Shown piece by piece: positions 12,316 to 17,750 of a DNA stretch of 26,480 bases. This stretch comes from Promethearchaeota archaeon. GTDB taxonomy: Archaea > Asgardarchaeota > Lokiarchaeia > Sigyniarchaeales > SOKP01. The notes below the pieces were generated by a model. The model saw nothing but the letters and a program-made list of their open reading frames with translations. It searched no databases and was not told the origin of the DNA. The position numbers and the translations under genes were made by a program. Location of the stretch: NCBI GenBank assembly GCA_008080735.1, contig SHMW01000066.1, forward strand, positions 1 to 26,480. Direction: 5' to 3'. Each line of letters begins with the position of its first letter. Positions within the stretch are counted from its first letter, which is position 1.

Positions 12316-12356
12316 AGCTCACTCTTAAAGCTTAATTTTATACATATCTACAAATC
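12316..12356. repeat. Left copy of a 41-bp direct repeat (putative att / dif-like site)
   Basis: AGCTCACTCTTAAAGCTTAATTTTATACATATCTACAAATC matches 16749-16789 at 38/41 positions, with a 22-bp perfect core at 12331-12352. Confidence 0.9.
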
Positions 12357-13175: not shown

Positions 13176-13240
13176 ACAGATAGTATGTTTTTCGGAATAT
13201 TTAATTTTTGTCAGAAAATCTCAAAATGAAAATAATTTTA

Positions 13241-13265
13241 GGGGGAGACACTACGGGGGAGGGAG
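13241..13265. repeat. G-rich inter-module motif, copy 1 (variant)
   Basis: GGGGGAGACACTACGGGGGAGGGAG in a very AT-rich intergenic context. Confidence 0.85.
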
Positions 13266-13290
13266 CGTATAATTAATGAAGAAAAAAAAC

Positions 13291-13398
13291 TTAATCCTCT
13301 TTCTTGAAATTTTTATAATGAGTTTTTTCTAAATAATCTTCAAATTTGACCAGACTCTTATATAGCTTTGCCTTCTTAAGCTTTACCTTCTTAAGAAT
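13291..13398 (-). pseudogene. Remnant of the 3' end of a paralog of the 130-aa ORF (14385-14777)
   Basis: 13291-13380 matches 14385-14474 at 82/90 nt and encodes LKKAKLYKSLVKFEDYLEKTHYKNFKKED*. Contains a 15-bp tandem duplication (13366-13395). The frame is closed by a TGA just upstream. Confidence 0.85.
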
Positions 13399-14218: not shown

Positions 14219-14337
14219 TTTCTATGAAATAATAAAGAGATTCAGATATAAATATTTAATCGATAAATATGAAAAAACTCTTTATAATTAATGAAGAAAA
14301 ACGAAAATAAATTTTTTTTCTAAATTTCTTTTCAGAA

Positions 14338-14359
14338 GGGGGCACCACGGGGGAGGGAG
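14338..14359. repeat. G-rich inter-module motif, copy 3
   Basis: GGGGGCACCACGGGGGAGGGAG, flanked by TTTTCAGAA and ATAA. 20/22 identical to copy 2. Confidence 0.9.
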
Positions 14360-14384
14360 ATAATAATAAATGAAAAAAAAAAAC

Positions 14385-14777
14385 CTAATCTTCTTCCTTG
14401 AAATTTTTATAACGAATTTTTTCTAAATAATCTTCAAATTTGACCGGACTCTTATATAATTTTGCCTTCTTAAGAATTAAAGCTCCTTTTTCGGTTGTTA
14501 TAATCTCTTCAGGATCAAGATCAGTAAATAAAACTGTTTTTGATGAATCTACTAATTTTAACTCAAACATTTTTTCCATTGTTTCCTTCTCATAAGTATA
14601 TGTTGTTATGCCTGCAATTACTTCACTTTTATTACCAAATACTCTTCCATCTTTTAAAGTGAGAAATCCATCAATAATTATATAACTTCCAAGATGTAAA
14701 TCACGATATTCTGCTATTGTATTCCAAATATGATCATAAGATTCTTTTGAATCAATAATATGAATCCAGCTATACAT
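14385..14777 (-). CDS. Hypothetical protein (130 aa), candidate immunity protein
   Basis: Intact ORF directly downstream of the nuclease-domain gene, with an AAGGTAG SD-like and TTTTTAAAT TATA-like sequence upstream. No family recognised; function inferred from context only. Confidence 0.7.
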   Translation of the reverse strand: MYSWIHIIDSKESYDHIWNTIAEYRDLHLGSYIIIDGFLTLKDGRVFGNKSEVIAGITTYTYEKETMEKMFELKLVDSSKTVLFTDLDPEEIITTEKGALILKKAKLYKSPVKFEDYLEKIRYKNFKEED

Positions 14778-14864: not shown

Positions 14865-16436
14865 TTAAAAAGTCCTCCAATCTCTATATGGAATTTTAGA
14901 TAATGTAATTTTTGTCAGTTCTTCAAATTTACTAATGATAAAATCCAGTCTATCTTCAGGATCAACATTATAATCTACTACGATCAAATAATATCCATCT
15001 TTATTATTCTTCTCAAAATGATCAACTTTATCTTCATCTCTAGTTATTAAATCTCGCCACGGTTTATATACTTTTGAATATTTTTTAGTCCCTTCAACTA
15101 CATCTAATTGTTTAGAAACAGCCTTATAAGCTTCAAATCCTATTTTTGGATCAGGATCATGTTGTTGACCTTGATACTCAATTGCTAATTTAATTAAATT
15201 TCCATTTTTATCTTCTATATTTAATTCTACATATCCATCAACATGAACATTTGCATGAATAAGTCCTTCTAATTCTGGAAATATTTTTGTAAGACCATAT
15301 TCGATTTGATAATTATTTTCTATATATCCTAATTCTTTAAATATATATTCACATATCTCATTGGTGATTTTCTGATTTATATACTGTCCGTCGCACTTTG
15401 GGCAATTACCCACATTCCTTTTAATATTATTATACGTATTTTCCCATACATGACCGCAGTCTTCATGTTTCCATGTTAATATTGCATCACCATAGAATTT
15501 GTTTTTACCATTATAAGATTCTATACATGCCAGAGTAAATTCCTCAAAGCTCAATTCCTTATTAGGATCATTTGGTGAAACTAATTTCAATCCTCTACTA
15601 GTTGCTTCATCCTTTGCGTTTTTTAAAGCATTTCGTAAGTATGTACTCTTTTCTCTAAAAAAATCTTCTAATATTTTTGCGGATTCTAAGGTCATTCCAA
15701 AAGCGGTTATGAACGCTACATATCTCCTTGCCATCATTTCATTAAGTTCTAGGTATGCCTCTTTAGACAAATCAACAATTCTGATAACATCATTTTGGGA
15801 AACGAGGTCACTATCTACATATTGGTTGGTTTCGGTATTAACTCCTGTAGTTATGTAGAAGGTTTCACCATTAGATTCGTGGACATACTCAATTTGATGG
15901 ACGATTTTAATTTCATCTCGATAAAATACAATGATATCTCCTTTTTTATAATGTGTGCCTTCTGGCATTAATCTCATAGGTACTTCAGCACCAGCTTGTA
16001 GCCCAAGTATGCCAGACATCGATTCACTCAGTACTTTTAATCTTCTTACATTCTTGTCCGTTTTTTCAAAGGAATTTTCATTGGAACGAGACGGAAAATC
16101 TACCTTTTCGGCAATATCCCGTTCAAATCTCAAGGGGAGGTCACTCATTAGGTATGCGCCTACACAGAGGACTAGCTGCTCGATGTGGCTTAGTAATTCC
16201 CCAGAGGTACGTTTCTGATTAATCCTTGTTAAGACTTCTTGTCTAACTTCTAAAATTTTACCGTCAGAGGATTCAATTATATCCATTCCATCATAGGACC
16301 GACCGGCAAGTGTCTCGACGGCATACCGAAGCTCTTCTACAGGAAAATGAAGTGTGTCCAGCGTTTCTTTGGGTGATTCGGATATGGGTTTCTGGGGGTC
16401 GAATAGTCGCGAATAAAGAGCTTTGATTTGGTTCAT
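14865..16436 (-). CDS. Multidomain protein: S26-like (Ser-His) peptidase + Zn ribbon + REase-like (DUF559/Vsr-type) nuclease; probably the C-terminal remnant of a larger gene
   Basis: aa ~133-222: VLSESM, GDIIVF, IVHQI, YITTGVN...D (cf. Sec11/SipW VxSGSM, GDIIVF, IVHRV, TKGDN..D). aa 322-348: WKHEDCGHVW...CPKC. aa 398-426: HVDGY...LAIEYQGQQH. Confidence 0.78.
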   Translation of the reverse strand: MNQIKALYSRLFDPQKPISESPKETLDTLHFPVEELRYAVETLAGRSYDGMDIIESSDGKILEVRQEVLTRINQKRTSGELLSHIEQLVLCVGAYLMSDLPLRFERDIAEKVDFPSRSNENSFEKTDKNVRRLKVLSESMSGILGLQAGAEVPMRLMPEGTHYKKGDIIVFYRDEIKIVHQIEYVHESNGETFYITTGVNTETNQYVDSDLVSQNDVIRIVDLSKEAYLELNEMMARRYVAFITAFGMTLESAKILEDFFREKSTYLRNALKNAKDEATSRGLKLVSPNDPNKELSFEEFTLACIESYNGKNKFYGDAILTWKHEDCGHVWENTYNNIKRNVGNCPKCDGQYINQKITNEICEYIFKELGYIENNYQIEYGLTKIFPELEGLIHANVHVDGYVELNIEDKNGNLIKLAIEYQGQQHDPDPKIGFEAYKAVSKQLDVVEGTKKYSKVYKPWRDLITRDEDKVDHFEKNNKDGYYLIVVDYNVDPEDRLDFIISKFEELTKITLSKIPYRDWRTF

Positions 16437-16748
16437 ATCTAGGGGAGCAAACAGACCTTCATAGGGGTCTCCTATCGCAATATCGGAGAGCTGGACATCA
16501 AAGGCAGTCTCGAGGTGCCCCGATGAAAGAGATTGCTCTGAAATTATAGTGAACTCTTGAGGTTCTGAGATTCTGTTTTAAAGGCTTCCTTCAACAGTAG
16601 ATACTCTCGTTTGTCCATAAGTTTGAAGCAAGTCGGTCTCTATTTCAATTTTATTACAGATTCGAGAGGTTCGCAAATTCAGTCTTCGATCCCGAAATGG
16701 GCAGTCCTATAGGTTGTTCCGAAATACTCGGTGATTTGCTTGATGGTT
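16437..16748 (-). pseudogene. Decayed 5' extension of the 523-aa gene
   Basis: The same frame stays open for 47 codons upstream of the ATG (to 16577), hits TAA at 16578-16580, then is open again to 16706. GC-rich, coding-like sequence continues up to the right direct repeat. Confidence 0.6.
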
Positions 16749-16789
16749 AGCTCATTCTTAAAACTTAATTTTATACATATCTACATATC
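16749..16789. repeat. Right copy of the 41-bp direct repeat (putative att / dif-like site, in the xer promoter region)
   Basis: AGCTCATTCTTAAAACTTAATTTTATACATATCTACATATC, ending 38 bp before the xer ATG. Confidence 0.9.
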
Positions 16790-16826: not shown

Positions 16827-17750
16827 ATGAACGATTTTAAAATATCTGATTTTATCGATGATTTTCTTATAGCGAAAGAGGTTGAAGAAGGTTGTCGTCC
16901 TTCAACAATTCGAGCTTATAGATATGATTTAGAGAAATTTATGAAAATTGTTGGAGATGTGGAAATAAATCATAAATTAATGCGTCAAAAAGTGCGCTTT
17001 TTTCTGAAAAAGCTCAAAGATAAAGGATATACCAAACGGTCTATCAGCCGGAAAATCGCTTGTTTACGTTCATTTTTTAAATTTCTTAGTCTAAATGAAT
17101 ACGTTGAAAAAAATCCAATGAATACGATAAAAAGCCCGAAAATTAGAAGTGAAGAAAGCCTACCAAAATTTTTAGATTTGAAAGATATGAAAAAAATCTT
17201 TGAGGATCTTAAGAATCGCAAGAAGTTTAATTCAAAAAAAAGCAAACGCTACTATTTAATGGTAAGGTTGTTATATGCGACAATGGCTAGAGTAAGTGAA
17301 TTATGTAATATTCGAATTCGAGATGTGAATTTCGAGAAGGGATATATACGATTGCGGGGCAAAGGTAATAAAGAAAGAATAGTTCCAGTGGATAAAAAGA
17401 CGCTTTATTTTATTAAGGAACATTTAGATAATAGGCTCGTTTATGAACCAGATGATTTTTTGATCGTAAATACGCGAAATGAGCAACTTCATCCGAGAGT
17501 AGTACAAAATGATATTAATATCATAAAGGAAAAATGCGGATTTCCTGAATCTAAAGATATCACTCCCCATGTCTTTCGGCACACAGGAGCCACACACTTG
17601 CGAAGGTCTGGTATGGATATAAGTGAGCTCCAAGATATTCTTGGGCATTCCTCACCAAATACCACTCGAATATATGCTAAGAATGATATCACGAAACTTA
17701 AGGAGTCTTATAATGTAATGCATCCTCTTAGTAATTCAAGAGAACTCTAA
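16827..17750 (+). CDS. xerA: XerA/XerC/D-type tyrosine recombinase
   Basis: SAM-like N-domain (STIRAYRYDL, SISRKIACLRSFFKFL) and a full catalytic set: R (MARVSE), K (GKGNK), HxxR (HVFRH), LGH, Y (TTRIY). 307 aa, with no IntI-specific insertion. Confidence 0.9.
   Translation: MNDFKISDFIDDFLIAKEVEEGCRPSTIRAYRYDLEKFMKIVGDVEINHKLMRQKVRFFLKKLKDKGYTKRSISRKIACLRSFFKFLSLNEYVEKNPMNTIKSPKIRSEESLPKFLDLKDMKKIFEDLKNRKKFNSKKSKRYYLMVRLLYATMARVSELCNIRIRDVNFEKGYIRLRGKGNKERIVPVDKKTLYFIKEHLDNRLVYEPDDFLIVNTRNEQLHPRVVQNDINIIKEKCGFPESKDITPHVFRHTGATHLRRSGMDISELQDILGHSSPNTTRIYAKNDITKLKESYNVMHPLSNSREL

Follow-up and report, generated by a model that had tools for sequence, protein, structure and literature searches.

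Results

The stretch of DNA analysed here, referred to as the window, comprises 26,480 nucleotides (nt) of contig SHMW01000066.1 from the genome assembly of a Promethearchaeota archaeon (GCA_008080735.1; Lokiarchaeia, Sigyniarchaeales). Its minus strand carries an open reading frame (ORF) of 523 amino acids (aa), termed P0001 (14865..16436, minus strand), in which a domain resembling signal peptidases of the S26/Sec11 type precedes a predicted nuclease. The ORF is followed on the same strand by a gene for a 130-aa protein (14385..14777), a candidate cognate immunity protein. From its N-terminus, P0001 consists of an alpha/beta module, the N-region (aa 1-105, 16122..16436), which is conserved ahead of the peptidase domain in full-length relatives; a peptidase core (aa 125-229, 15750..16064) with Ser139 (16020-16022), His180 (15897-15899), and Asp208 (15813-15815); a helix and a beta-strand appended to the core (aa 230-247, 15696..15749), which end in A245-F246-G247; a helical linker belonging to the nuclease-type tail (aa 248-314, 15495..15695); a Zn-ribbon or treble-clef-like element (aa 315-350, 15387..15494); and a Vsr-like PD-(D/E)xK nuclease domain (aa 351-523, 14868..15386), all on the minus strand.

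A preliminary description of the window had proposed that P0001 is a self-cleaving polymorphic toxin, in which a signal-peptidase-like domain without an adjacent transmembrane anchor is fused to a nuclease. The motifs on which it relied lie where it had placed them, both on the peptidase side (VLSESM at 135-140 with S139, GDIIVF at 166-171, IVHQI at 178-182 with H180, and YITTGVN at 194-200) and on the nuclease side (HEDCGH at 324-329, CPKC at 345-348, HVDGY at 398-402 with D400, and EYQGQQH at 420-426). The missing anchor was borne out as well, the highest 19-residue Kyte-Doolittle mean over the whole 523-aa protein being 1.13. Hydrophobic helices do occur in full-length relatives, where several hundred residues separate the nearest one from the peptidase domain that follows it.

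The NCBIfam model for archaeal signal peptidase I, TIGR02228, matches aa 131-219 of P0001 (E 4e-10) with a score below its curated cut-off. A search of the single P0001 sequence against the PDB sequences returned chance matches only. The profile of the family, an alignment of 56 relatives, matches human SEC11C (E 6e-10) and SEC11A (E 2e-9), with the S-M box, the GD-I-VF box, the IVH box, and the distal Asp all aligned. S139 is thereby aligned with the Ser in the SGSM motif of SEC11A/C, H180 with the His of IVHRV, and D208 with the second Asp of NAVDD in SEC11A.

Because the first whole-protein model left aa 101-256 below a predicted local distance difference test score (pLDDT) of 50, this part, which holds the peptidase, was modelled again on a deeper alignment. 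The AlphaFold model of aa 106-295, built on the alignment of 56 relatives, reached a pLDDT of 83 and a predicted template modelling score (pTM) of 0.72. Foldseek had returned nothing at E <= 0.001 for the whole-protein model; for the model of aa 106-295, it placed SpsB, the LexA C-domain, SEC11A, UmuD', and the lambda repressor at the top ranks. Structural alignment with VIA-align gave Z 10.1 for SpsB (96 residues aligned, root-mean-square deviation (rmsd) 3.1), Z 9.5 for SipA, Z 9.0 for LepB, Z 8.6 for UmuD', Z 8.2 for LexA, and Z 8.1 for SEC11C at 27% identity. The superposed part always covered model residues ~20-124, corresponding to aa 125-229. Within aa 125-250, for which an S24/S26 fold had been proposed, aa 125-229 are thus predicted to adopt the signal-peptidase/LexA fold according to AlphaFold, Foldseek, VIA-align, and the profile.

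Conservation of individual residues was counted over the domains of 80 non-redundant relatives, n for each column being the number of sequences that cover it. Ser139 (65/65) and His180 (79/79) are invariant, and Asp208 is retained in all but one of the sequences (79/80). The Ser and His motifs of the preliminary description stood, and with the conserved Asp208 the site looks like a Ser-His-Asp triad rather than a Ser-His dyad. Peptidases of the S24 type use a Ser-Lys pair; with an invariant His at the base position, the family does not have this dyad. Moreover, two other Sec11-type genes in the same genome score above the TIGR02228 cut-off, and the peptidase-nuclease ORF is therefore not the housekeeping enzyme. 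The fold, the motifs, their conservation, the missing anchor, and the score below the cut-off together indicate that aa 125-229 is a divergent, anchor-less S26 peptidase domain with a Sec11-type active site, predicted to be catalytically competent and lying outside the housekeeping equivalog.

In the model, a helix (aa 225-236) and a strand (aa 242-246, pLDDT 85-89) follow the core and fall outside the part that superposes on known peptidases. The strand of the window copy closes in A245-F246-G247, followed by M248, which places the predicted cleavage at nt 15696/15695. Across the family, the junction has the consensus [A/V]-x-[G/A] followed by Met. The P3 position is occupied by Ala (56), Val (12), Gly (4), or Ile (2) in 74 of the 75 sequences, the P1 position by Gly (55) or Ala (17) in 72/73, and the P1' position by Met in 51/73. 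Conservation among otherwise unrelated proteins ends a few residues past this point. Type I signal peptidases classically select for small residues at -3 and -1, and self-cleavage of LexA occurs at Ala-Gly. This end of conservation at the junction is the main argument for cleavage in cis, which would take place between G247 and M248.

We had also considered the VPYIG segment of SEC11A as a possible homologue of the VP[F/Y]I strand before the junction. This assignment was rejected because the structural alignment ends before the strand, at model residue ~120-124; as the alignment stops short of it, the strand is regarded as an added element.

An exhaustive HMMER search retrieved 142 relatives, some matching the peptidase part only and some the nuclease part only. 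The tails of 49 peptidase-bearing proteins fell into 10 BLAST clusters, and 26 further tails excised from genomes gave the same pattern of unrelated tails. Giant relatives in which the domain is kept while the C-terminus varies, as the preliminary description had anticipated for such a system, do exist: the proteins reach 2224 aa, and their tails form at least 10 unrelated groups. Pfam searches with 10 non-nuclease tails gave sub-threshold hints only, such as Toxin-deaminase (E 0.003) in P0081.

The gene directly downstream varies with the type of tail, encoding leucine-rich repeat (LRR) proteins or members of a 150-aa, a 184-aa, or a 215-aa family, of which the 150-aa family often occurs in tandem arrays. 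The 130-aa gene of the window matches no Pfam or PHROG family, and in each of the seven independent loci that were inspected (7/7), a member of its family stands directly after the nuclease tail. In two of these loci, the nuclease is found behind another N-terminus, a ubiquitin-like segment in P0014 and an unrelated one in P0021. Elsewhere among the 1397 ORFs of the first locus set (loci L070-L072 were screened separately), the 130-aa family occurs once, immediately upstream of the gene for P0025, where it stands alone. Such matching of downstream genes to tail types, together with the linkage of the 130-aa family to the nuclease, forms the pattern expected of toxin/immunity pairs. The genetic signature is that of a polymorphic toxin/immunity system, in which the tails would be toxic and the downstream genes would confer immunity. 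A complex prediction for the nuclease domain with the 130-aa protein scored 0.00, which gives no answer and speaks neither for nor against binding.

Some of the relatives illustrate the variety of tails and partners. P0025 (L005:4929-7958), a full-length protein of 1009 aa, has an HExxH motif in its tail and is followed by an LRR protein (L005:7983-8405). As LRR genes stand after several other tail types too, this suggests that LRR proteins act as partners of tails. In L048, L051, L055, and L045, tandem arrays of the gene family of ~150 aa, whose products start like MKVLIKEV..., lie downstream of or near family members and resemble arrays of spare immunity genes. P0014 (L070:4001-5248) has the same nuclease tail and a 128-aa partner after a ubiquitin-like segment instead of the peptidase domain. 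Among the other N-terminal partners of the nuclease, Pfam detected only this weak ubiquitin match (PF00240 in P0014), and the segment may be an alternative release module. The P0014 gene adjoins an integrase and 168-aa gene pair, and its product starts with an N-G-R-V-N motif.

In the whole-protein model, the fold of the window copy's tail is predicted with high confidence. Its residues 348-514 match Vsr (1cw0; Z 8.4, 114 residues aligned, rmsd 2.8), the RAP domain of FASTKD4 (Z 8.5), and I-Bth0305I (Z 8.0), in a match list that is dominated by the restriction-endonuclease-like fold and includes many restriction-type nucleases, with Z-scores only moderately above the background of the tool. 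C327, C345, C348, G423, H426, D467, and K470 are invariant across 27 nuclease tails, and D400 and E420 are nearly so. The nuclease motif reads D...E-x-[Q/D]-G-x-x-H, with Gln at the usual third position and Asp there in P0010. The sole Pfam match of the ORF, the DUF4379 Zn finger (PF14311), is sub-threshold at 19.6-21 bits against a gathering threshold of 24.5, and PHROG families annotated as 'endonuclease' match the Zn-ribbon region. The restriction-endonuclease-like module proposed downstream of the peptidase corresponds to a Zn-ribbon plus, by fold match, a Vsr-like PD-(D/E)xK domain (aa 315-523). The fold supports the assignment of the tail as a DNase of this type, with nuclease activity predicted.

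The window copy is not a whole gene. Beyond the ATG, homology to P0025 continues upstream for 27 codons and then, at a weaker level, as far as ~16655, across an in-frame TAA (16578-16580); this decayed upstream continuation (16437..16655, minus strand) is homologous to P0025 residues 287-365. Of the 523-aa ORF as previously described, the fusion of peptidase and nuclease held, but the gene boundaries did not, as homology runs upstream of the ATG. The copy found here has been displaced and cut short at its 5' end, and full members of its gene family are much larger. It lacks the N-terminal body of its relatives, and a fragment of such a body is located on another contig of the genome, at its edge (C23); searching the same genome with the body of P0063 found nothing. 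A second family member in this genome (G000:C31:207-2188, locus L002) is frameshifted and 5'-truncated and has a different tail. A gene of the 150-aa family lies downstream of it, and the stretch contains masked bases.

The fragment resides in a 4.4-kb island bounded by 41-nt direct repeats of 93% identity (12316..12356 and 16749..16789). The right repeat lies 38 nt before a gene for a tyrosine recombinase of the Xer/phage-integrase family (16827..17750, plus strand), which diverges from the truncated toxin gene. Between the repeats are the toxin fragment, the 130-aa gene, a decayed duplicate of its 3' end, and two toxin-antitoxin pairs. The duplicate (13236..13385) is 150 nt long and 86% identical to 14330-14479, a segment that takes in the 3' end of the 130-aa gene and the G-rich motif following it. 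With the Xer/phage-type recombinase, a PIN/AbrB pair, and a DUF433/DUF5615 pair, the neighbourhood is island-like; it is also archaeal, with an Orc1/Cdc6 gene close to the ORF. The G-rich motif downstream of the 130-aa gene, 53 nt long, occurs three times in the window (13217, 13554, and 14311).

Many truncated copies begin at the motif N-G-K-V-N-S-E-S-x-x-N-E-N just before the peptidase domain (L003, L044, and others), and several adjoin two genes, one for a 300-aa integrase and one for a NikA-like protein of 170 aa. Locus L044 contains a direct repeat of 45 nt, identical over a core of ~31 nt, at L044:4237-4281 and L044:13557-13601. One site is the KVNSESDSNE-coding motif inside a 1494-aa toxin gene. 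The other, at a distance of 9.3 kb, falls on the opening codons of a truncated copy of 608 aa, and a gene for a tyrosine integrase lies between the two sites. The core of this repeat is also present at a truncated copy from another genome, and a 21-nt core recurs in L049/L019 and L023. An integrase element bounded by repeats inside a toxin gene suggests that tails are swapped by integration. The arrangement fits an element that would integrate into the toxin gene, bring a new peptidase-tail-immunity unit, and displace the old one.

The contig of L003, which carries two nuclease-type cassettes, also encodes a D5_N/DUF5906 primase-helicase (L003:11167-12447) and a conserved pair of 88-aa and 492-aa genes. 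The recurrence of an 88/490-aa pair beside a full-length gene of the family in L045 hints that the toxin system rides on a plasmid- or virus-like element.

Complete relatives measure 800-2224 aa, and common to them is a long N-terminal body that contains between one and three hydrophobic helices. Searches with this body found neither a Pfam or PHROG family nor a usable lead in the Atlas. A locus search with a narrow alignment had yielded three Asgard loci. When the profile was searched across 400 genomes of the phylum, strong full-profile matches, junction included, were confined to the Asgard family to which the window belongs, with up to five per genome. Other Asgard genomes gave one weak core-only match each, in ORFs of ~190-390 aa, which we read as the ordinary signal peptidase.

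Discussion

We consider it probable that the window holds a cassette, displaced and shortened at its 5' end, from a polymorphic toxin/immunity family specific to Asgard archaea, in which a membrane-free Sec11-type peptidase releases a DNase tail by cleavage in cis and the partner gene encodes the immunity protein. A full-length member would comprise the N-terminal body with its hydrophobic helices, the N-region, the S26 peptidase, the helix and strand leading to [A/V]-x-[G/A], a Met, and the exchangeable effector. The strand, with its small P3 and P1 residues, would lie in the substrate groove of the peptidase itself. In the window copy, Ser139, His180, and Asp208 would then cut after Gly247 and free the nuclease tail, which the co-transcribed 130-aa protein would neutralise in the producer cell. 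A more specific proposal, to which we commit ourselves more tentatively, combines the anchor-less Sec11-type domain as a cis-acting release device at A-x-G|M with an exchange of cassettes mediated by tyrosine-integrase elements, which would have their attachment site within the toxin gene at the KVNSESDSNE motif.

Several observations weigh against this account. The match to TIGR02228 reaches 39.6 bits, below the curated cut-off of 51.85. At the position of the first Asp in the canonical GDN box, the family has Val (38), Leu (19), Ile (9), or Thr (6), and Asp in only 4 sequences. The Met conserved at P1' might instead reflect translation that starts internally, or a seam between modules, and the window copy, devoid of the N-terminal body, may not be expressed at all. 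Furthermore, searches of Pfam, PHROG, and the Atlas revealed no signal peptide, known secretion domain, or delivery apparatus. A role between cells is therefore an analogy with other polymorphic toxins, by which an export or delivery route might be expected.

The alternative that survives best is an intracellular addiction or abortive-infection module carried by a mobile element. The tethered nuclease would be inactive until a signal triggered regulated, LexA-like self-cleavage, and the 130-aa protein would be the antitoxin. Such a module would agree with the position of the cassettes in or beside mobile elements with integrases, a D5-type primase, and toxin-antitoxin pairs, with the failure to find an export signal or a delivery apparatus, and with a fold common to LexA, UmuD, and the lambda repressor, whose cleavage is regulated by signals. 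Yet a conserved N-terminal body of 800-2200 aa with hydrophobic helices, many exchangeable tails, and arrays of spare downstream genes typically characterise delivered polymorphic toxins and are seldom seen in toxin-antitoxin modules, and the active site is of the Sec11 type with a His rather than of the LexA type with a Lys. We regard this module as unlikely.

We give somewhat less credence still to a peptidase-like domain that works in trans on another substrate, or that binds peptides or acts as an adaptor in the manner of SipA, a signal-peptidase homologue with such a part in pilus assembly, with AxG-M being only a structural seam, a recombination boundary, or an internal start codon. SipA is indeed among the best structural matches (Z 9.5), the Met right after the junction is conserved (51/73), and in many tails conservation runs a few residues beyond the junction. 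The small P3 and P1 residues, however, fit the -3/-1 rule of signal peptidases exactly where the diversity of tails starts. The catalytic Ser, His, and Asp are also kept in essentially all members, at 25-85% identity, which argues for an active enzyme.

It is very improbable that the C-terminal module is a selfish homing-type endonuclease or a restriction-like part fused by chance, with no toxin involved and the 130-aa gene as unrelated cargo. The best fold matches do include the homing endonuclease I-Bth0305I and restriction enzymes, and the PHROG hits to the Zn-ribbon region are to 'endonuclease' families. Unrelated cargo would nevertheless be hard to reconcile with the linkage of the 130-aa family to the nuclease in 7/7 loci, whatever lies upstream of the nuclease, and the same junction carries at least 10 interchangeable tails, the nuclease being among them. 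A housekeeping signal peptidase mis-fused by assembly or gene calling, which the sequence similarity to archaeal signal peptidase I might bring to mind, was ruled out by the missing membrane anchor, the sub-cut-off score, the two other genes above the cut-off, and the same fusion in many independent assemblies.

The system that we favour, a polymorphic toxin/immunity system with a putative S26-type releasing peptidase, shares with bacterial polymorphic toxins a conserved N-terminal part, a peptidase before an exchangeable toxin, a tail-specific downstream gene, and truncated spare cassettes. Unlike them, it has a serine peptidase of the S26/Sec11 type, Asgard hosts, and no known trafficking domain. 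The releasing peptidases described for bacterial polymorphic toxins are HINT, ZU5, PrsW, caspase-like, MCF1-SHE, PVC-metallopeptidase, and papain-like domains (Zhang et al., 2012; PMC3482391). That work makes no mention of signal peptidase, LexA, S24, or S26, and our full-text literature searches, whose coverage did not extend to a 2019 survey of archaeal polymorphic toxins (Makarova et al., mBio), found no such combination of peptidase and toxin. The preliminary description had not recognised the architecture as a described one, and within these sources the putative S26-type release device is one that we did not find described.

The domain agrees with Sec11 and archaeal type I signal peptidases (MEROPS S26B; SEC11A/C, PDB 7P2P/7P2Q) in its fold and in the order of its Ser, His, and distal Asp motifs, and the junction of the Asgard family reflects the preference of these enzymes for small -3 and -1 residues. 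It differs in having no adjacent anchor, in its position inside a large multidomain protein, in the change of GDN to G-[V/L/I]-N, in the extra helix and strand, in its presumed substrate, which is its own chain, and in its score below the TIGR02228 cut-off. LexA, UmuD, and lambda CI (MEROPS S24) share the superfold and provide a precedent for intramolecular cleavage next to a small residue. In contrast to S24 peptidases, the Asgard domain has a His as its base and no DNA-binding domain, and its predicted site lies C-terminal rather than N-terminal to the core.

Likewise, the orphan cassettes of Rhs and CdiA are promoterless, 5'-truncated copies that keep a piece of the conserved region, the tail, and the immunity gene, as in the family described here. 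In at least one Asgard genome, however, exchange appears to proceed via a tyrosine-integrase element with repeats inside the toxin gene, and not by homologous recombination alone. The nuclease tail resembles the Vsr/DUF559/RAP/I-Bth0305I branch of PD-(D/E)xK enzymes with DUF4379-type Zn-ribbons in its fold (Z 8.0-8.5), its D...E-x-[Q/D]-G-x-x-H motif, and the Zn-ribbon in front. It departs from this branch in that no Pfam model matches at its cut-off, in that the third acidic or Lys position is usually taken by Gln, and in that the domain is an exchangeable tail with a dedicated partner gene.

To our knowledge, the conflict systems of Asgard archaea are almost unstudied. If our account is correct, these archaea possess a rich, family-restricted toxin/immunity system with at least 10 effector types and their partner genes. 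A serine peptidase of the signal-peptidase clan would then join the known toxin-releasing autoproteases, and a Ser-His-Asp signal peptidase would act off the membrane, on its own chain. The integrase-bounded cassette would represent a mechanism for exchanging toxin tips distinct from the homologous recombination described for Rhs and contact-dependent inhibition systems. The self-cleaving module could also be used as a compact tool for protein engineering.

Two further proteins combine the N-terminal body and the N-region without a detectable peptidase domain, P0092 (1110 aa) and P0066 (1059 aa). The former ends in a LAGLIDADG-type endonuclease (PF14528; phrog_4645, E 3e-24) and the latter in the Vsr-like nuclease.

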